A DNA stretch of 64,000 bases. Origin: an uncultured Gammaproteobacteria bacterium (GTDB taxonomy: Bacteria > Patescibacteriota > Patescibacteriia > Veblenbacterales > UBA10138). Under the pieces are notes generated by a model. It saw only the letters and a list, made by a program, of their open reading frames with translations. It did no database searches and was not told the DNA's origin. Below, in pieces: positions 3,685 through 63,057 of the stretch (positions are counted from its first letter, which is position 1; each line of letters begins with the position of its first letter). The DNA is taken from the NCBI GenBank assembly GCA_964348825.1, contig CAYGDX010000002.1, forward strand, positions 15,489-79,488. Reading direction: 5' to 3'. The position numbers were made by a program, and so were the translations under genes.

Positions 3685-3955
3685 AGAATTAGCGAGATAA
3701 TATTAACCCAAACCTTAAAAAATGTCTATGCGTATAAAAAATAACTAAATAGACCTAAATGTATAAATCCGAAACTCTAATATCTAAATCCTAAATAAAT
3801 CCAAAATATTTAAATTTCTAATTCCTAATTTCTAAAAATGACTAATATCTAAACTCAAAATCTGAAATTAAATTTTAATTTCTAAATTTTAAACCAATTT
3901 TAAATGACTAAATGTTTTAAAATTAAAAATTTATAATTTAAAATTATCAATTACC

Positions 3956-5346: not shown

Positions 5347-5382
5347 AGAATTAAATCAAAAATAATTTATCTTAGCTACTTC

Positions 5383-5540
5383 TCTAGAGAAGTAGCGCAA
5401 GAGTCGCCGCCTCGGTCTCCAGGTTTGAACAGTGCTCGTCAAACGAGCTGGCTCAAGCTATGCCGAGCGACCACAAACACGCTTGAGCCGGACGCTCGTT
5501 TGCCTTGCGCTCTGTACAAACCCTACGACAGGGCGGCAAA
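5383..5540. repeat. GC-rich ~150-bp hairpin repeat, copy 1 (family of 4)
   Basis: Shares the core GGTTTGAACAGTGCTCGTCAAACGAGC ... GCTCGTTTG ... CTGTACAAACCCTACGAC with copies at 8703, 48046 (reverse complement) and 61958 (reverse complement). Flanked by the palindrome CTACTTCTCTAGAGAAGTAG. Confidence 0.8.
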
Positions 5541-5606
5541 ACATTAGGAATTGGGATTTCGGATTTATTTAGAGTTTAGATATTAGGATTTAGGATTTTT
5601 TAGAAA

Positions 5607-6593
5607 TTAGTTATTAGTATTTCCAAACAATCTCTTCCCCTCTTCCCAATACTTCTCGCGTCCATCTAATTTCTGTTTCCACCACCACTCCACGCCCCAC
5701 ACAAAGGCCTCGGAAAGTCCGGTGCGACGAGCGAAATTTGTGTGTTCTTCAAACTGTGCCAATGAAAAAGATTTTTGCGCTTCTTGGTAACTTAAATTAT
5801 TTAACCCACTCGGCGCCCACGGCTCCATTTGCAATTCACTAATCACTGTTTTATTTACAAATGGCGAAACCAGCGCGGCTTTGAAACGATAAAAAAATGG
5901 TGACCAGAAGTAACGAAAATACCCTAGTGTTTTATCCCAAGTGACACGGTACATAGTAACGCCTTGCTCATCAGCTAAAATCGATGTTTCAAGCCACGGC
6001 GAAATTTCACCGGAATCAGTCATTAAAATCGGACGCGATGAATCAAGCGATTTTATTAAATCACGTTCTTCTCTCAATAAATGAAAGTTAGGCGTGCCAC
6101 ATTTACCAAAAGCAAATAGAGGTTCATTTTCAAGTTGCCATCTGATGATACTTCGATTAGATTGATAATGCTCTACCACTTTTTTTAGCATTGTTAAATG
6201 ACGCGCCCGCACTTCCCATGGTTTTAAATCAGATAACCAAATTGGGTCGTGACACTCTGGCCAACGCGGTAATTTTCGCCCTACCGCCAAAGTTACTTTA
6301 ATATTTTTTTCAGCCGCAGAATTTATATACCAATCAAGTTCTGAAAAATTAAACTGACCGCTTTGTTGTTCAATATCATTCCAATTGGCTTGCAAACGCA
6401 CTTGTTTAGGATTTAAATCATTTAAAATTCCTTGCCAAACCGTTCTAGCGTCAAGACCTAAATATTCAGCCTGACGCGGCGCAAAAGCCACCACCCACTG
6501 TGGTTCTTTAGTGAATGGCAAATACTGCACTTGCACTGCACCGTAGATTAGTACAGCGGCGATTAGAGATAGAAAAATGTAGAAGTATTTCAT
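5607..6593 (-). CDS. secreted glycoside hydrolase, GH5-like (clan GH-A TIM barrel)
   Basis: 328 aa with a signal peptide. WQLENEP contains the NEP catalytic acid/base motif of GH5-type enzymes. Confidence 0.5.
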   Translation of the reverse strand: MKYFYIFLSLIAAVLIYGAVQVQYLPFTKEPQWVVAFAPRQAEYLGLDARTVWQGILNDLNPKQVRLQANWNDIEQQSGQFNFSELDWYINSAAEKNIKVTLAVGRKLPRWPECHDPIWLSDLKPWEVRARHLTMLKKVVEHYQSNRSIIRWQLENEPLFAFGKCGTPNFHLLREERDLIKSLDSSRPILMTDSGEISPWLETSILADEQGVTMYRVTWDKTLGYFRYFWSPFFYRFKAALVSPFVNKTVISELQMEPWAPSGLNNLSYQEAQKSFSLAQFEEHTNFARRTGLSEAFVWGVEWWWKQKLDGREKYWEEGKRLFGNTNN

Positions 6594-6705
6594 GTTAAAT
6601 TAGTTTTAGTTTCGATCATTAGAACACTTAAACATTAGAACATTATTAATAAAAAACTTTTTGTTCTTATGATCTAGTGATTTAATGTTCTAGTGAAAAC
6701 TCTTA

Positions 6706-7593
6706 CTATCCCATACTCAACAACCACAGCCCGGCGCCGATTAAAATCATAGCTTGAATTTTTTGAAAAAGTACTGCGCGAGAAAATTCTTCTTTTAATA
6801 AAGCGGGATGAAAACGTGATAGTACCGCCGTTAACGCCAATAAAAATACATACTGCACTCCTTGCAAAGCATTAACCAAGCTCACACTTGTTAAACTAAT
6901 CGCATAAGTAATAATAAGCCCTGATAGCGCTCCAGCCGTTTGCCCACCCACCACTAACCATTTAAAACTTTTATGACCAGCTGATAAATCATTTCTTAAT
7001 TCCTTAGTCACGCCAGGCAGTAGTAATAAAAATAATCCCGCACCCGCCGCGCCCAAACGATTCCAAATCAAACTAGAAATAAAATTCGTATGCTCTAAAG
7101 AAAATTTAAGTAAAACCGATGATACAGCAAAGGCAATGGCCGCACCAATTGCTAAAATTAAATTAGCGCCTTTTAAACCACTTTTACCTTGAGTAATTAA
7201 TAATCCACCTAAAACTAATAAAACAAAACTGGCAATTTCATAAATAGACAATCGCTCACCCAAACTAATAAAAGCTAAAATTAAAACAAATAGTGGCGAC
7301 CAACTGCCGATTAAAGCCGGCACGCGCGAGGCCTCAGCTGTTTTCAAAATTGCAAACATTAACCACAACCCAACTGTAAAAATTGCGCCGGAAACTAAAC
7401 CAACTAATAAAACCGGAATCGAAATAAACTCCAATCCAAAAGGCGTAAGCACTAAAACAAATAATCCCAAAATAGAAATCATTACCGTATATACGGCGGG
7501 ATTTTTTATTTGTTTACTGGTTAATAAAATTTTATCAACCGCGATAGCCGTGGCGTTTAAAAAATAGCCAATTGCCGCCCAAAGTAACCACAT
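6706..7593 (-). CDS. EamA/DMT-family transporter
   Basis: 295 aa with 10 TM helices. Duplicated EamA halves with a GERLS motif. Confidence 0.65.
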   Translation of the reverse strand: MWLLWAAIGYFLNATAIAVDKILLTSKQIKNPAVYTVMISILGLFVLVLTPFGLEFISIPVLLVGLVSGAIFTVGLWLMFAILKTAEASRVPALIGSWSPLFVLILAFISLGERLSIYEIASFVLLVLGGLLITQGKSGLKGANLILAIGAAIAFAVSSVLLKFSLEHTNFISSLIWNRLGAAGAGLFLLLLPGVTKELRNDLSAGHKSFKWLVVGGQTAGALSGLIITYAISLTSVSLVNALQGVQYVFLLALTAVLSRFHPALLKEEFSRAVLFQKIQAMILIGAGLWLLSMG

Positions 7594-8618: not shown

Positions 8619-8702
8619 GAGGTAAGTATAGCATGGGATGCGAAGGATGATAATTTTTAAAATCTAAAATAAATCTTAAAATTTTAAATAATATATTTTG
8701 TT

Positions 8703-8860
8703 ACTTCTTTAGTAGAAGTAACCAAGAATCGCAGGCCACAGTCTTCGGGTTTGAACAGTGCTCGTCAAACGAGCTGGTTCAGGCTATGCACAACTACCAC
8801 AGCACGCCCGAACCGGACGCTCGTTTGACTTCCGCTCTGTACAAACCCTACGACGAGGCC
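8703..8860. repeat. GC-rich hairpin repeat, copy 2
   Basis: Same core as copy 1. The flanking palindrome is degenerate (TTACTTCTTTAGTAGAAGTAA). Confidence 0.8.
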
Positions 8861-9007
8861 GCATAACTGCTAATATTTTTTCATTTTACATCGTCATTTT
8901 CCATTTTGATTTTTAAATTTTAAATTAACAAAAATCCCCTGCTGAACAGGAGATTATTGTTCAATTTATGACTTAACAGTGGGCGACCGTTAGTCCTAAA
9001 TTATAGT

Positions 9008-9292: not shown

Positions 9293-9370
9293 ATTAGTAT
9301 GGGTTAGTTAATTAACAGGGTTTAGTATAGCACAAACCCCAAGAAATGCTAAGCAAATGGTGGATAAGTG

Positions 9371-11938: not shown

Positions 11939-12290
11939 AAGTATATCTTATACCATCCAAAATAAAAACGCCATGTGATTTATAAATTTCTAATCTCTAT
12001 GAATGACTAAGGCGTTTAAATCCTAAACTCTAAACCCTAAATCCTAAACAAACCCAAAATTCTAAATTCAAATGCTTAAAACTTTTTTAGATTTTAGTCA
12101 TTAGGATTTATTTAGAGTTTAGATATTAGGATTTCGGATTTTTGAGGAATTGACCATCATTCTACTTTGCCCCACTACTTAACAAAAGACTCTTGCTTAC
12201 CAGATTTGACTCCAAACCTCTACCGTATTACGTTTAAAGTAAATAAAATACAAATCAATATTCATCAACAAAATAAAAAGGAATGCAAAA

Positions 12291-15952: not shown

Positions 15953-16192
15953 AGTAAAATTTTATGTCACCTAACATCTCGGGATATCTGATGTTTGCCG
16001 TAGCGTAGCGGAGACAAATATGGGTGGAGGCTTTTGTATAAAAGCCGTAACCAGATATGCCGTGTTATATGATGTATGCTTTTCTTTTTGTCTCGCCTCA
16101 GCGAGACCACTTTTCTGTAATGAACAAATTTTATTTTTGTCTTGGCGAAGGGGCAGAGGGGCTGGGGGTGAATGCCCCGAAGCCAAGACTCC

Positions 16193-21723: not shown

Positions 21724-21886
21724 GTAGCACTAAAACATGGTTACTAAATTTTGGGAATTAGACATTAAGATTTAAGATTTTTAGAAATTATAAATTAATC
21801 ATTAGTGATTTTGTGAGAGATTGCCACGCTCGCCCTTTTAGGCTTCGCTCGCAATGACGTGCTACGTACTAAAAGTTAAAATACTC

Positions 21887-22396
21887 TTACTCCAACCATT
21901 TCCACTTTTTAACCAACCCCAACTCCTTCCACCACTTCCCTAGCCCACACCGTTCACCTGCGCCCGATGCTCCTAATCCAATCAACACTAAAGCATAAAT
22001 AATATGTTCATCAAACAGTGGATTATTTTTTGGTGGTAATGATAATGCACTGTACATCAAAATCATCATCAATGCTCCAATATAACCCGCCAGTCGCATA
22101 GCCACGCCCAAAATAAGTGCTGTGCCAACAAAGGCTAAACCAATCATAAACAACCAATCAATTACTACACTTCCTGAAAGTGCCTTAAAAAATGAAACAC
22201 CCGCACCTGAGGTTGCAAATTGTAAAAATGAGGCAGTTGGCGAAACGCCAACTAACCACGATTTTTCCGCTACTGTCGCAAATCCTAAACCAAATAATTT
22301 ATCTAGAAATGCCCAAAGAAATATAAATCCCAAAACAAAACGTAAAGAAGTCCAAATTTTTTGTTCAGTTGAATACAACATATGGCTACCAAACAT
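21887..22396 (-). CDS. DoxX-family membrane protein
   Basis: 169 aa. RFVLGFIFLWAFLDKLF matches the N-terminal helix of DoxX. Confidence 0.6.
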   Translation of the reverse strand: MFGSHMLYSTEQKIWTSLRFVLGFIFLWAFLDKLFGLGFATVAEKSWLVGVSPTASFLQFATSGAGVSFFKALSGSVVIDWLFMIGLAFVGTALILGVAMRLAGYIGALMMILMYSALSLPPKNNPLFDEHIIYALVLIGLGASGAGERCGLGKWWKELGLVKKWKWLE

Positions 22397-25320: not shown

Positions 25321-25925
25321 AAATGTTAAGTTAAGAGTAAGAGCAAAGAGTAAGAGTTAATTTTAAATCCGAAGCACTAAATACGAAATCCGAAAATTTA
25401 GAATTTCGATATTCGCCTGCCTGCCGGCGAGGCAGGGATTTGGGATTTTTGTTATATACCCATTACCCCTATATCCTATTATAAGAAATACGACAAAAAT
25501 TGTCAAATGGGGTATCCACTTAAGCAACTAACCGATAATAAATATTAATCCTAGCAACGAGATAGCCGCCACGCCTGAAGCCACTCCAAACCAAAAAGTG
25601 AGTACGGGTGAGGCCTGAAGCCACCAACTCCCCTCATTTGAGGACGTGGGAGTATTATCAAAGTCGGGATCAAAAGTAATATGGGACATAATTAATTAAA
25701 ATCACTAATGACTAATATCTAATTTCTAAAAATCACCAAAACCTAAATCACAATTACTAAAATTAGTTATTAGACATTTTTAGAAATTAGTGATTAGAGA
25801 TTAGAAATTAAAACTCCTCTAAACTCCCGCCTTCCTCCTTCGCCAGAGGCTTCGGAAGGACAAGCCGCGGGAATGACCCCACTTCGCTTTTAGCTACGCG
25901 GGGCAAGCAACTACGCGCTACTAAC

Positions 25926-39918: not shown

Positions 39919-40106
39919 TTGCCTTGGCAGGGGGTGAAGGAATCCTCTTCCCCCAAAATTTAGCAACGCTTTAGCGTAAGCTAAATTTTTCCTCCAAAAC
40001 CCGGGTGTTTAAAAATCTAAAGCAGTTTAGATTTTTAAACTACCCTTCGATTCCTACCTTCACCACATTCAAGAAAAGAGCGCTTCCAAAAATCGGAACC
40101 GCTCTT
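39919..40106. repeat. tRNA-3'-end-linked repeat unit 1 (starts with 21-nt copy of the tRNA-Trp 3' end)
   Basis: TTGGCAGGGGGTGAAGGAATC, then CTCTTCCCCCAAAATTTAGCAACGC and onward. It matches the 62886..63010 element next to tRNA-Lys at roughly 90%. Confidence 0.75.
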
Positions 40107-40286
40107 TTCTGGCAGGGGGTGAAGGAATCCTCTTCCCCCGTCGTGCTCGAAGACTCGCACTCCTCCGCCAGAACCCGGCGCCCGTTGCGACTGCCACTAG
40201 GCAGTCGGTCGGGTCGCCTTCGATTCCTCTGCCATCTCTACATACCAAGATAAATCACCCCACCGTGAAGGTGAGGTGATTTATCT
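40107..40286. repeat. tRNA-3'-end-linked repeat unit 2 with ~95-nt GC-rich structured insert
   Basis: Starts with the same 20-nt tRNA-Trp 3'-end copy followed by CTCTTCCCCC. It then diverges into a roughly 65% GC segment (40135..40235) that contains the perfect hairpin CGACTGCC-ACTA-GGCAGTCG. Confidence 0.7.
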
Positions 40287-42643: not shown

Positions 42644-43411
42644 CTAAATTTGTTTTAATAATGAAATAAAACGTTTGGCTTCCAAACTAGCGCCACCTAC
42701 CAACACGCCATTAATTGGCGGAACATCATGCACAAAAGAATCGATATTTGTTAAATCTACACTACCACCATAAATAATTTTTATTTGACTATCGACTGTT
42801 TTTTTAGAGAAATGATCAAGTAGCGCCCGATTTATTACTTGTGCTGTATGCTGAGCTTCCACGGGCTCTACTGCCTGCCCTGAACCAATCACCCACACTG
42901 GCTCATAAGCAATAATTAATTTTTGAGCTCCAGATAATGTTAAACCATCGAGCGCTTGATTAACTTGCCTAGCCACTACCATATCTTTTTGCCCTATTTG
43001 GCGCTGGGCAAATGTTTCACCTACACATAATACTGGTACCATATTGGCCGCTACCACTCCAGCTACTTTTTGTTGAATCATTACATCACTCTCACCAAAA
43101 TATTGCCGTCGTTCAGAATGACCCACAATTACATAGCCCACACCCAGCTCTTTTAAAACTTCGGGCGATACTTCACCAGTGTAGGGGCCAGTACTTTTCC
43201 AAAACACATCTTGTGCACCTAAAATAACACCGGAGCGTTTTATTACCTCGGCCACAGCTTGAAGCGCTGGAAAGCTCGGCGCTAAAACCAACTCAAAACT
43301 ATTTTTAAATTTTTTATATTCTTTAACCAACTGTTTCGCTGTAAGCGTACTATCTTTGATAGACAAGTTCATTTTCCAGTTGGCGATTATGAGTGGATAT
43401 TTTTTGAACAT
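42644..43411 (-). CDS. tpiA: triosephosphate isomerase
   Basis: 255 aa. IIANWKMN, GHSERR, AYEPVWVIGSG. Confidence 0.9.
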   Translation of the reverse strand: MFKKYPLIIANWKMNLSIKDSTLTAKQLVKEYKKFKNSFELVLAPSFPALQAVAEVIKRSGVILGAQDVFWKSTGPYTGEVSPEVLKELGVGYVIVGHSERRQYFGESDVMIQQKVAGVVAANMVPVLCVGETFAQRQIGQKDMVVARQVNQALDGLTLSGAQKLIIAYEPVWVIGSGQAVEPVEAQHTAQVINRALLDHFSKKTVDSQIKIIYGGSVDLTNIDSFVHDVPPINGVLVGGASLEAKRFISLLKQI

Positions 43412-43611
43412 AAAAATATAAATTTCTAATTTCTAATCACTAATTTCTAAAAATAACTAAATTGTTTAAATCCTAAACTCTAAATCTTATTCATCAGAAC
43501 ACTAGAACATTCAAACATTAGAACATTATTAATAAAAAACTTTTCTGTTTTTATGTTCTAGTGTTCTGATGTTCTAATGAAAAACTCTTACTCTTACTTA
43601 ATAATTCTACC

Positions 43612-45094: not shown

Positions 45095-45265
45095 AATAAT
45101 TTAAATTCTAGACTCTAAATCTAAAACAAATCATAAATTCAAATGTTTTAAATTTTTTGAATTTTTGCCATTGGAATTTATTTAGGATTTAGATATTAGG
45201 ATTTCGGATTTTTTGGTTCTAGATTCCCGCCTCCGCGGGAATGACGACTTCTAATAATTATACTC

Positions 45266-45994
45266 TTACCCTAAGCTCTTACTCTTGCTAATACTTATTT
45301 CCTCAAACAACCCATTTTGCTCCACACTCACTTCTTTTTGTTTCACAAGTTCAAGTAGCGCGAGAAACGACACTATCATTTCGGTTTTATCTTTGGCCTT
45401 GGTTTTTAAATGTTGCCAAGTGAGGCCGGCGTGATCTTTTATAAAATTCCTTAGGTGCTCAATTTTTTCTTTAAGTGAAATAGCTTTTTGTAAAGTAATT
45501 TGCGGTAATTTGATAATTGGTTCTAAAATTGCCAAAATTTTACGGAAAGCTTGCTCTAGAATAGAAATATCTAAACCAGACGGTGGTGGTGAAAAACGTT
45601 TTAATTCCTCTAAAATAATTGGTTTTTCCCGAATATATTCAATTTGTCCCTGCCGCCATAGTTTATCAATTTTTTGTCCAGCTTCCAAATAAGCTTTAAA
45701 TAATTTCAATTGTTCTTGTAGTTCAATGGCTTCTTCCTCACCACCTAAGGATATTCCTGGCAAAAGTAAACGTGATTTTATAAGTAGTAATTTAGCGGCG
45801 ACGACTAACCAATCTGCCACTTCCGCCGGATTTAATTCTTCTACCTGCGCTAAATATTTTAAATATTGATCACACACTTGTGCCAAAGACACTTCCGATA
45901 TATCAAGCTCCTCCTGCTCAATTAGCTGGAGGAGTAAATCCATTGGGCCTTGAAATTTTTCTAGTTTAATTTGGTACACGACAAAAAGAGTCAA
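45266..45994 (-). CDS. scpA: segregation and condensation protein A
   Basis: 242 aa. The KLEKFQGPMDLLLQLIEQEELDI N-terminus is the ScpA signature. Confidence 0.85.
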   Translation of the reverse strand: MTLFVVYQIKLEKFQGPMDLLLQLIEQEELDISEVSLAQVCDQYLKYLAQVEELNPAEVADWLVVAAKLLLIKSRLLLPGISLGGEEEAIELQEQLKLFKAYLEAGQKIDKLWRQGQIEYIREKPIILEELKRFSPPPSGLDISILEQAFRKILAILEPIIKLPQITLQKAISLKEKIEHLRNFIKDHAGLTWQHLKTKAKDKTEMIVSFLALLELVKQKEVSVEQNGLFEEISISKSKSLG

Positions 45995-46018
45995 AAGTAA
46001 AAATCAGAACTAATTTTT

Positions 46019-46492
46019 TTATTTTTTCTTTTTTGCAAATACGGCCAAGGTGCCTTCCACCACTTTTAACAAATCCTTGGTTTTGATGTGAAGTGATTGT
46101 TCAAAACTACCAGCTTGCGCCACCACTTTTTGCGCTTTCATTACCGCCTTATCAACGTAAACAGGAATTTTGTGAAGTGGACCATGAAAAGCGGAAAGCG
46201 CGCCCGGTTTTATTTTAAATAATTTTACCATTACATTTTCACGATCAATATCCACTATTTTCGCGCCCAATACTTTTTTCAAAATTTTAAAATCTACTTG
46301 ATGTGAAGCTGGTAGTACCAAAAGCACATGACCTTTATCTACTTTAACCACTAAAGTTTTAGCGACTTCGGTTAATTTCTTTTTTAAAGTTTGCGCCAAA
46401 TCATAAGTCGTAAATACTTTTTTGTGTTCTAAAATATCGTGCTTAATTTTATTTTTCTTAAGAAAATTAGTAACCTTAGCTGGAATTTTCAT
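46019..46492 (-). CDS. YbaK/ProX-type aminoacyl-tRNA deacylase domain protein
   Basis: GHVLLVLPASHQVDFKILKKVLG ... SAFHG matches YbaK. Start set at the internal Met (MKIPAKV); the longer track ORF would overlap the next gene. Confidence 0.6.
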   Translation of the reverse strand: MKIPAKVTNFLKKNKIKHDILEHKKVFTTYDLAQTLKKKLTEVAKTLVVKVDKGHVLLVLPASHQVDFKILKKVLGAKIVDIDRENVMVKLFKIKPGALSAFHGPLHKIPVYVDKAVMKAQKVVAQAGSFEQSLHIKTKDLLKVVEGTLAVFAKKKK

Positions 46493-46778: not shown

Positions 46779-46894
46779 AAAAATTTTTTTAGTTAATAAA
46801 GTTTAATTTATGACATTAGATCACTAGAACACTAGATCATTAAAACAAAAAAATTTTATTAATTAATTTTCTAATGTTGAAGTGTTCTAATGTT

Positions 46895-47212
46895 TTAATG
46901 ACAACTCTTACTAACCCTCAATGGCAACTTTTGTTGCTCGCCAAGTAAGCGACGAGTAGTGCGACGACCAATCACAGTTAACTTTACCTCTTTAATATAC
47001 CATTTTTGCGGCGTTCTTACACCATAACCAGTAAGCAACCCTTTATTAATTAAACTTTCTAAACTTTTAGTAATAATATTCACTAAATCACCATCCTTGG
47101 ACTTTAATTTTTGATCATCATAAAAGTGCACAAAAATATCCCTCTTGATAACCTTCGGCGGTATTCCATAACACGCCTTTAAAATATATTTTTGTAATGG
47201 CGACAAGCGCAT
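46895..47212 (-). CDS. hypothetical protein
   Basis: 105 aa and basic. No motif. Confidence 0.3.
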   Translation of the reverse strand: MRLSPLQKYILKACYGIPPKVIKRDIFVHFYDDQKLKSKDGDLVNIITKSLESLINKGLLTGYGVRTPQKWYIKEVKLTVIGRRTTRRLLGEQQKLPLRVSKSCH

Positions 47213-47982: not shown

Positions 47983-48045
47983 GGCAAATAAATTAAAATG
48001 TAAAAATCAAAATGCAAAATGACAATGTAAAATGAAAAATTAACC

Positions 48046-48212
48046 GTCGTGCAACCCTGTCGGAAAGTTAGCGCAGAGCGGAAGTCAAACGAGCGTCCGG
48101 TCAGGCCGTGTTTGTGGTCGCTGTGCATAGGCCTGACCAGCGAGTTTGACGAGCACTGCCTAACTTGGAGACAAAGGTTGCGACTCTTGCACTACTTCTC
48201 TAGAGAAGTAGA
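48046..48212. repeat. GC-rich hairpin repeat, copy 3 (reverse orientation)
   Basis: Its reverse complement aligns to copy 1 and includes the CTACTTCTCTAGAGAAGTAG palindrome. The internal stem carries compensatory changes (GGTCAGGCC/GGCCTGACC against GGCTCAAGC/GCTTGAGCC). Confidence 0.8.
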
Positions 48213-48232
48213 AAAAATAAATAAATTTTAAA

Positions 48233-57269: not shown

Positions 57270-57532
57270 AAGTGTAAGAAAAAATAATTATTAACGTTAT
57301 AGTAAATGAATGGAGATGAAATTTTACTCTGACTATGGTAGTATACTAGAGAAAGGACCAATAGTCAAACAAATCAAAATTGTTAAATGTCTAATTTCTA
57401 ATAACTAATTTCTAAAAAATTCCAAATCCTAATATCTAAATTTAGAAATTTAAATTTTTAGACATTAGAAATTAGTCATTAGTTATTTTCAACAACTCTT
57501 ATTAAATATTTTATTATTTATTTTAAACCCCT

Positions 57533-61854: not shown

Positions 61855-61957
61855 AATTATTATTATCGAAAACTACTTAATAAAATCTAATAATTTAAAA
61901 TTTAAATATCAAAATGAAAAATGACAAATCAAAATTTAAAAAGAAACTGTGGAACCG

Positions 61958-62107
61958 TGCCGCCCTGTCGTAGGGTTTGTACAGCGCGCCTGTCTGCCGG
62001 TAGGCAGGGAATCAAACGAGCTTTAGGTCAAGCCGTGTTGTGGTCGCTGTGTATAGGCCTGACCAGATCGTTTGACGAGCACTGTTCAAACCCTATACCT
62101 GCGCGGC
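61958..62107. repeat. GC-rich hairpin repeat, copy 4 (reverse orientation, with ~25-nt insertion)
   Basis: TAGGGTTTGTACAG ... CTGTTCAAACCCTATA terminal inverted ends. The internal insertion CGCCTGTCTGCCGGTAGGCAGGGA resembles the motif upstream of csoR. Confidence 0.75.
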
Positions 62108-62335
62108 GATTTTGTGTTACTTTATAAAAAGTAACAAAATTATAAATATGATTTTAATTTTGATTTAATAAAATCTCACGCCCGACCAATATTCGTCTTC
62201 CTTCCCCTACCCGGCGGGTGAAACGGCACGGCTTTAAAACGCTTCACACCTTCCGCCTGCCGCACTTTAAACGACGATGGCGTACGATACCGCGTTACTT
62301 TACGAATAGTTTTTGATGAATTATCACGCATATTT

Positions 62336-62842: not shown

Positions 62843-62885
62843 AAAAACAGCGAATTGAAGCTGTTTTGTGTACTTTTTAATGGTG

Positions 62886-63010
62886 GGAACGGTGGGGATC
62901 CTCTTCCCCCAAAATTTAGCAACGCTTTAACGTAAGCTAAATTTTTCCTCCAGATCCTGGGTGTTTAAAAACCTAAAGCAGTTTAGGTTTTTAAACTACC
63001 CTTCGATCCC
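62886..63010. repeat. tRNA-3'-end-linked repeat (tRNA-Lys version)
   Basis: Starts with GGTGGGAACGGTGGGGATC, a copy of the tRNA-Lys 3' end. It continues with CTCTTCCCCCAAAATTTAGCAACGCTTTAACGTAAGC ... and the 15-bp-stem hairpin GTTTAAAAACCTAAAGCAGTTTAGGTTTTTAAAC. Confidence 0.75.
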
Positions 63011-63057
63011 TTTTGAATAAAAATTAGAGAGTATCTTAAAATTAAGATACTCTCTAA

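Follow-up and report, generated by a model that had tools for sequence, protein, structure and literature searches.

The window analysed here, a 64-kb stretch (64,000 nt) of an AT-rich Patescibacteria genome, carries genes that lie almost exclusively on the minus strand, and its GC skew is uniform. Its spacers hold four copies of a non-coding, GC-rich intergenic element of ~170 nt, termed F1 in the following, which consists of a small hairpin and a long rod and occurs at unrelated loci. The limits of the element were set by a covariance model from seven copies, with scores of 147 to 186 bits in the window:

5374-5542, plus strand: F1 copy 1, covariance-model match of 186 bits, antisense to the flanking genes
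5375-5396, plus strand: 5' hairpin of copy 1
5397-5405, plus strand: linker of copy 1, GCAAGAGTC
5406-5537, plus strand: rod of copy 1
5450-5458/5481-5489, plus strand: central stem at the rod apex of copy 1
5459-5480, plus strand: conserved loop at the rod apex of copy 1
8699-8867, plus strand: F1 copy 2, covariance-model match of 175.5 bits, antisense, 5' hairpin at 8700-8722
48046-48213, minus strand: F1 copy 3, covariance-model match of 175 bits, sense, 5' hairpin at 48211-48192
61954-62136, minus strand: F1 copy 4, covariance-model match of 146.9 bits, sense, 5' hairpin at 62135-62116
62007-61989, minus strand: optional extra helix of copy 4, CTGCCTACCGGCAGACAGG, in the 3' arm and at the same position in the copy on the related contig L053

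Copy 2 is located between the terminator of the HU gene and the promoter region of the Na/Ca exchanger, copy 3 between the AspRS stop codon on one side and an HD-domain gene on the other, and copy 4 upstream of a P-type ATPase. The genes next to F1 (encoding a glycosyl-hydrolase-like protein, the Na/Ca exchanger, HU, AspRS, the HD-domain protein, the P-type ATPase and a NUDIX protein) are unrelated to each other, and all 10 F1 loci known from this and other genomes are intergenic. The notion of a conserved UTR of paralogous genes, which the preliminary description had named as a refutation, fails because the flanking genes are unrelated. The four copies listed in that description are real: the window contains the invariant 15-mer core CAGTGCTCGTCAAAC exactly four times and shuffled sequences never do, and all copies fold better than shuffles. 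Their elevated GC content was equally borne out (52-57% versus 37% for the window). The positions given for them were right, the extents too short, as the element reaches from the 5' hairpin to the outer helix of the rod; the 5' hairpin of copy 4 had been missed because this copy was cut at position 62107.

In the 5' to 3' direction, F1 comprises a conserved hairpin, the linker GCAAGAGUC and an imperfect rod of ~135 nt, and the total length ranges from 168 to 209 nt. The stem ACUUCU/AGAAGU of the 5' hairpin is conserved and extended by two to three covarying pairs, and it is kept under varying loops (CUAG, UUAU, UUAGU, UUAAU). The rod is built from an outer helix GCCGCC/GGCGGC, which marks the 3' limit of the element, two 3x3 internal loops, a helix with a conserved A.A mismatch and an inner helix, and its tip is a hypervariable apical stem of 9-10 bp under a conserved terminal loop of 22-23 nt (CUAUGCACAGCGACCACAACACG). 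F1 is non-coding, since the copies share no open reading frame and differ by indels of 1 nt and of 19-20 nt. Two sequence details of the preliminary description had to be corrected. The outer ends GGGTTTGAACAG...CTGTACAAACCC, thought to be common to all copies, are replaced in copy 3 by AAGTTAGGCAG...CTGCGCTAACTT, a fully compensated variant and therefore a further instance of covariation, and the palindrome CTACTTCTCTAGAGAAGTAG, ascribed to three copies, is present in its exact form only in copies 1 and 3, with the variants GTTACTTCTTTAGTAGAAGTAAC and GTTACTTTTTATAAAGTAAC of this hairpin in copies 2 and 4.

The covariance model and the wider search that had been proposed for F1 added six copies in four other Patescibacteria assemblies and upheld the pairing, and the sampling, still small, now comprises 10 copies and ~300 kb of related DNA. 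A scan of one-genome-per-species contigs with the 15-mer identified true copies on L051, L053 and L056, all from MAG H52-bin160_1, the other matches being mostly due to chance. AspRS homologues served as a ladder of relatives whose contigs were searched for F1, and a copy was located at L125:10702-10871 in a relative with an 83% identical AspRS. The translated reverse frames of F1, searched against 5.8 billion proteins, matched one spurious called 'protein', P0121, which led to contig L137 with an F1 copy at 2534-2701 (69% GC) and a longer, branched relative of ~235 nt at 250-482 on the minus strand, here designated F1b. The latter has the 5' hairpin, linker and outer helix in common with F1, as well as the 3' sequence CCGACAGGGUGGCA; its interior is different and has a tetraloop in place of the conserved apical loop. 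Finally, an exact-match query with the HU protein led to the region of copies 1 and 2 in GCA_964360795.1, whose AspRS is 96% identical. The genomes that harbor F1 have GC contents of 37% and about 51%.

Searches of reference collections placed F1 in no known family. Only tRNAs reached the Rfam gathering score in the window, and nothing relevant was found with copy 1 and the L137 and L125 copies at E <= 10; known Rfam families (riboswitch, ribozyme, sRNA, omega/HEARO-type RNA) can hence be discarded for lack of a covariance-model match, as can 6S and SRP RNA, for which copy number and turnover are also unfitting. No F1 match was present in phage and plasmid records (blastn) or, in three scans, among the IMG/VR viral contigs; a gapped-pattern scan of JGI metagenomes gave a single chance match, and the literature searched for F1 sequences and Patescibacteria repeats yielded nothing relevant. 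Degraded or partial copies were absent from ~400 kb searched at E <= 1-10.

F1 is unusually rich in covariation for a repeat. Shuffled sequence folds far less well than any window copy; copy 1 reaches -77 kcal/mol (z = -5.35), and its opposite strand folds equally well (z = -5.18). In a model-fitted alignment of nine copies, 28 of 49 pairs are changed on both sides and 95% of the cells are paired. None of 500 shuffles reached this, and controls with slid partners gave 31-42% pairing with 1-7 both-side-changed pairs. A MAFFT alignment of 10 copies evaluated with RNAalifold, which is independent of the model, recovered the same structure with 28 of 46 pairs compensated. Copy 3, e.g., has GGGUUUG.ACAG/CUGU.CAAACCC swapped for AAGUUAG.GCAG/CUGC.CUAACUU and the outer GCCGCC/GGCGGC for GCAACC/GGUUGC, and in the L125 and L137 copies nearly all stems are replaced. 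The central stems had been quoted correctly for copy 1 (GGCTCAAGC/GCTTGAGCC) and copy 3 (GGTCAGGCC/GGCCTGACC); copy 2 has one A.C mismatch in this stem and copy 4 one G.U pair. The unpaired parts behave differently from the stems: the apical loop, the linker, the mismatches and the junctions UGCUCG, CCGGACG, CUUCCGC and CGACAGGG are constant across copies, and the A.A mismatch, the 3x3 internal loops and the apical loop are conserved in all of them while the stems vary. Counts of G.U versus A.C (13 versus 5, with 7 of the 13 G.U from one pair) pick out neither strand.

An extra GC-rich helix of 19-20 nt occurs at two fixed junctions, in the 5' arm of the L051 and L053 copies and in the 3' arm of copy 4 and the L053 copy. 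It was never found outside F1, and at this 3'-arm junction F1b carries another hairpin; it is therefore regarded as an optional helix and not as a nested, independently mobile mini-palindrome. A pseudoknot between loop and junction (GGUC/GACC) was rejected, as the pairing is not conserved in the L125 or L137 copy. The same applies to the 5' hairpin as an operator in double-stranded DNA, whose centre of symmetry is lost with the loops UUAU and UUAGU; a stem that is kept under a changing loop rather fits a folded strand.

Orthologous spacers have gained or lost F1 between genomes that share 96% AspRS identity, and two of three comparable sites are empty in close relatives:

Copy 3 site (AspRS-HD spacer): 250 nt with F1 in the window genome; 161 nt of unrelated AT-rich sequence without F1 in the 96% relative; 15 nt in the relative with an 88% identical AspRS and 3 nt in the 83% one; no F1 in the 80% relatives
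Copy 1 site: 175 nt without F1 in the 96% relative, with the second arm of an AT-rich palindrome in the place of F1
Copy 2 site: F1 kept in the 96% relative (L140:4119-4285), where one pair has changed in a compensated manner
L125 site (tRNA-edit gene/scpA): filled in L125, 6 nt past the stop codon and 15 nt before the next start; empty in the orthologous window spacer at 45994-46019 (24 nt); unrelated spacer sequence in the 96% relative, in which the covariance model finds no F1

In several relatives with an AspRS identity of 80-88%, the ~21 kb that surround the same genes likewise contain no F1. Contigs from independent short-read (Logan) assemblies of the same organism break within the element: L131 and L132 stop 32 nt inside copy 3 and L142 within copy 2, as expected for a repeat. 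The empty orthologous sites, the reciprocal filled site and the contig breaks together characterize F1 as a dynamic dispersed repeat. Clean insertion junctions were not recovered because the whole spacer differs between filled and empty sites.

Other differences between the relatives were seen in the same region. The P-type ATPase-HU spacer measures ~960 nt and contains a 96-aa ORF in the 96% relative (L140:2732-3695) versus 78 nt in the window (9293-9370), i.e., another spacer-level indel between near-identical lineages. The syntenic region of relatives carries inserted genes for '23S rRNA intervening-sequence proteins' (PF05635) and ORFs with PDDEXK_5 and GIY-YIG domains (L121:7099-7455, L121:15325-15711 and L145:10626-10994), which look like further small mobile or selfish genes of the lineage.

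With respect to the neighbouring genes, copies 1 and 2 are antisense and copies 3, 4, L051, L053, L056, L125, L137 and F1b are sense (8/10 loci), a bias that is not significant (one-sided binomial of about 0.055). In the sense copies, the 5' hairpin generally starts 6-50 nt past the upstream stop codon; that of copy 4 lies 200 nt past the NUDIX stop or 40 nt past a doubtful 51-aa ORF. The genes downstream of F1 are unrelated (HD-domain protein, P-type ATPase, ScpA, FemAB and unknowns), which, together with the two antisense copies, argues against a cis-regulatory leader or riboswitch. Copy 2 adjoins a separate canonical terminator and lies behind it, which makes its co-transcription improbable; it is conserved nonetheless, with a compensated change. 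A terminator scan came up empty at copy 3 and reported just one site at copy 1, internal and spurious, and no U tract abuts the rod, as an intrinsic terminator would require. The orientation independence favoured in the preliminary description was not established: the bias toward the sense strand and the strand asymmetry of the conserved terminal and internal loops mean that a strand-specific role is not disfavoured.

Several copies are bordered by AT-rich sequence. One type, tail A, was found in the window next to copies 2, 3 and 4 only:

8868..8927, plus strand: tail A of copy 2, AT-rich and promoter-like (TTGTCA-17-TAMATT type), conserved core at 8894-8923
47987..48045, minus strand: tail A of copy 3, running up to the start codon of the HD gene
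61891..61953, minus strand: tail A of copy 4

Tail A is probably a separate module, since L145, which lacks F1, has a comparable sequence ahead of its HD gene. Tail B, beside copy 1, belongs to an independent AT-rich palindrome that is found elsewhere and of which it forms one arm, and neither tail is counted as a part of F1. Several copies have a TAnnnT-like motif 4-7 nt ahead of their 5' hairpin; in copy 4, for instance, it reads TATAAT.

The spacers of the window contain additional repeats. A second AT-rich palindromic family of ~90 nt, with arms CATTAGAACA/TGTTCTAATG around an A/T-rich centre, has four intergenic copies (196-282, 6614-6707, 43492-43592, 46814-46901). AT-rich heptamer-like repeats (TTAGGAT, TTAGAAA, CTAAATC) form long inverted arrays, often between divergent genes, at 3760-3900, 5558-5608, 12000-12160, 25698-25812, 43400-43490, 45100-45215 and 57383-57520; they show 75-93% identity to MAG H52-bin160_1, in which no conserved gene order was seen. 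Small GC-rich hairpins ATTCCCGC...GCGGGAATGAC occur in spacers at 25820-25925, 45215-45245, 21850-21890 and L056:925-955, and the GC-rich islands 25820-25925 (65% GC) and 16133-16192 have no Rfam match. A 117-nt repeat at 39939-40055 and 62895-63011 (minus strand; regions 39925-40140 and 62883-63011), with copies that are 93% identical, sits just downstream of tRNA-Trp and tRNA-Lys. At its end, each copy duplicates the 3' end of the neighbouring tRNA (CCTTCACCCCCTGCCA twice after tRNA-Trp, CCACCGTTCCCACCA after tRNA-Lys), and the repeat looks like an att-type duplication by a tRNA-gene-integrating element or a tRNA-derived repeat.

The preliminary description had favoured a REP- or MITE-like DNA element and suggested looking for target-site duplications at the edges. 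A convincing candidate exists only at copy 4, outside the conserved sequence:

62165..62176, minus strand: upstream member of the 12-nt direct repeat AGATTTTATTAA, flank of copy 4
61877..61888, minus strand: downstream member of AGATTTTATTAA, flank of copy 4

The pair brackets a 276-nt unit of leader, F1 and tail A; it is the longest flanking direct repeat and was matched or exceeded in 1 of 300 shuffles. The direct repeats at copies 2 and 3 overlap conserved tail sequence, and six other copies have none. Size (168-209 nt), lack of coding capacity, dispersal of four copies over 64 kb and the filled versus empty sites (copies 1 and 3 and the L125 site) agree with a MITE. Membership in this class was nevertheless not established: no transposase domain was detected in 20 window ORFs scanned, the flanking repeat is confined to copy 4, and no clear terminal inverted repeats surround the whole unit, whose rod arms are complementary from GCCGCC to GGCGGC while the 5' hairpin and the linker lie outside without a 3' counterpart. 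A REP assignment did not hold either, as F1 exceeds the length of a REP about fivefold and lacks a conserved GTAG tag. The REP/REPIN-RAYT system is further contradicted by the variable hairpin ends (CTAC, TTAC, CCAC, TCAC) and the absence of a Y1 transposase among the ORFs scanned. Integron attC sites were dismissed because the arms GGGTTTGAACAG/CTGTACAAACCC do not fit RYYYAAC/GTTRRRY, core motifs occur only by chance in copy 3, and the copies lie 3-40 kb apart, in both orientations, between housekeeping genes. A PATE derived from IS200/IS605 is incompatible with a hairpin motif that is present once per element, never alone, and has unconserved bases upstream; neither TnpA nor TnpB was seen among the window ORFs scanned.

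The closest parallels are provided by other dispersed hairpin repeats. Bacterial MITE-like repeats measure less than 200 bp and include internal segments that are optional; their transcripts contain long stem-loops, they can influence mRNA processing or stability, and ERIC in particular is transcribed together with adjacent genes and has an effect on mRNA stability (PMC2229807). Like F1, the 127-bp imperfect palindromes of ERIC/IRU in enterobacteria are non-coding and intergenic, form a long imperfect stem-loop, occur in either orientation, have insertions at fixed internal sites and vary in presence between related genomes. F1 differs in the lack of sequence similarity, the host phylum, the extra conserved 5' hairpin outside the palindrome and the large conserved apical loop, and the TA-flanked short terminal inverted repeats and target-site duplications of ERIC were not found in it. 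Correia/NEMIS elements of Neisseria (100-160 bp) resemble F1 in their short and long variants that are due to an internal segment; their transcript stem-loop is a proposed RNase III substrate, and some copies have outward promoters, to which tail A beside three F1 copies may be a parallel. F1 does not consistently show either the 24-bp terminal inverted repeats or the TA duplication of Correia elements (PMC2229807), and its pairing persists although the copies of a single genome are far more diverged (71-83%). RPEs of Rickettsia are hairpin-forming repeats of small, reduced, AT-rich genomes whose mobility mechanism is unknown (PMC2229807); F1 is likewise a hairpin-forming repeat in such a genome, but RPEs often insert in frame into genes, in contrast to the exclusively intergenic F1.

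Further parallels are offered by attC sites, REPs and the GC clusters of yeast mitochondrial DNA. The latter are hairpin-forming sequences of 30-60 bp that are GC-rich relative to their genome; they share this enrichment with F1 but are much shorter. attC sites (e.g., the Vibrio VCRs of about 120 nt) are imperfect palindromes of similar length with a structure that is more conserved than the sequence, and they act as a folded single strand in which conserved unpaired bases matter; F1 lacks their cassette array, uniform orientation, intI gene and RYYYAAC/GTTRRRY core sites and has housekeeping flanks. REP/BIME-REPIN sequences are, like F1, GC-rich dispersed extragenic palindromes, and REPs can stabilise upstream mRNA. 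REPs are 20-40 nt long with a GTAG or CGTC tag (PMC3733652), whereas F1 has ~170 nt, no conserved tag and no RAYT among the ORFs scanned.

Taken together, we hold with moderate confidence that F1 is an ERIC/Correia/RPE-like family of structured mobile repeats, GC-rich, intergenic and not described before, which belongs to a Patescibacteria lineage and acts mainly as a transcript. F1 fits a family that is new in sequence, architecture and host and of a general kind that is known from ERIC, Correia and RPE. Its active form would be a folded single strand, because the double-stranded sequence of the stems varies freely while the pairing is kept. The acting strand would most likely be a transcript, co-transcribed as a 3'-UTR or intercistronic structure, in view of the 8/10 sense loci and the start shortly past the upstream stop codon. 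Such a transcript may provide a stable stem-loop or a processing signal by which adjacent mRNAs are protected or kept apart. F1 might spread via a trans-acting enzyme or by recombination between co-resident genomes. The antisense copies 1 and 2, the second of them behind a terminator, bring a recombination site at the DNA level and an independently transcribed sRNA into play.

Under a rival reading, the F1 loci would encode a functional small RNA, be it a ribozyme, a guide-like RNA or the RNA component of a ribonucleoprotein; each copy would be maintained individually, and changes in copy number would stem from duplication and loss of genes instead of selfish mobility. The invariant loops and junctions amid freely covarying stems and the optional helix at fixed junctions, with another sequence in F1b, are typical of functional RNAs, and F1 is conserved in genomes that differ in GC content (37% versus about 51%) and down to 83% AspRS identity. 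Copy 2, kept at the same locus in two lineages with a substitution compensated in situ, and the TAnnnT-like motifs before several 5' hairpins agree with it as well. We nonetheless consider it unlikely, given the failure of even relaxed Rfam searches (E <= 10), the lack of a 3'-end terminator and of a consistent promoter, the absence of F1 around the same genes in several 80-88% relatives, and the difference at two of three sites at 96% AspRS identity, which is unusual for a housekeeping RNA. Within the window, no target is complementary to the conserved loop. It is conceivable, if doubtful, that F1 represents a Patescibacteria-specific new class of functional structured RNA whose hairpin and loops bind or catalyse and in which the RNA or a partner enzyme mediates mobility; the partner may be a ribonucleoprotein, or the RNA may belong to an RNA-guided or self-processing mobile system.

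We give similarly little credence to a function at the DNA level, with F1 as an extruded single-stranded hairpin that is the substrate of a recombinase or HUH/tyrosine enzyme by which it is moved. The conserved loops and mismatches would then be recognition features of the enzyme, as in attC, REP/RAYT and IS200/IS605 ends, and by analogy the conserved mismatches and bulges of F1 may correspond to the extrahelical bases of attC sites. Both orientations within one replichore, the equally good folding of both strands (z = -5.35 and -5.18), the absence of a strand bias in wobble pairs and the presence/absence polymorphism are compatible with such a substrate. It is contradicted by the lack of an integrase, RAYT or TnpA among the window ORFs checked, by attC R'/R'' cores that occur only by chance in copy 3 without a cassette array, and by the missing GTAG tag. 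Furthermore, the 5' hairpin has no similar 3' partner, unlike IS200/IS605 ends, no target sequence is conserved beside F1, and phage, plasmid and viral collections contain no matches.

The preliminary description had equated the covariation with selection on structure; the many compensatory changes are real, but selection is not the sole reading, as the rate of change at the copy-2 locus points to other contributors. The comparison, which rests on a single orthologous pair, revealed differences at 13 of 169 positions of the element versus 4 of 220 in the flanking non-coding spacers (Fisher p = 0.006), i.e., the element differs ~four times more than the adjacent spacer. The changes are clustered and partly match variants in other copies: one apical-stem pair is fully compensated (U-A to C-G), the outer helix is remodelled, a mismatch is repaired or created, and two loop changes correspond to a variant of other copies. 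This excess suggests that gene conversion between copies or hairpin-associated or -templated mutation contributed, and some of the 'compensation' may accordingly have arisen in single events. Gene conversion among F1 copies thus probably feeds a fast, structure-preserving divergence. Structure under selection is still the likeliest reading of the covariation, since the persistence of asymmetric loops and mismatches in all lineages requires selection for a particular fold. That F1 is merely a decaying selfish palindrome without function, with a covariation produced mechanically by arm-to-arm template switching and gene conversion, would account for the pattern at copy 2 but is very improbable, because arm homogenisation would erase the A.A mismatch, the 3x3 loops and the 22-23-nt apical loop that persist across distant genomes, because the 5' hairpin and linker are conserved though outside the palindrome, and because no degraded or partial copies turned up.

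Patescibacteria have very small, gene-dense genomes that are thought to be poor in repetitive DNA. The turnover of F1 between near-identical lineages indicates that their intergenic DNA is more dynamic than assumed, and the element stays folded across lineages of very different base composition. F1 probably accounts for recurring breaks when these bacteria are assembled from short-read metagenomes, and it offers a marker for strain-level tracking. With 28 covarying pairs and a covariance model at hand, it is a well-defined candidate for a new RNA- or ssDNA-based mechanism of mobility or mRNA processing.
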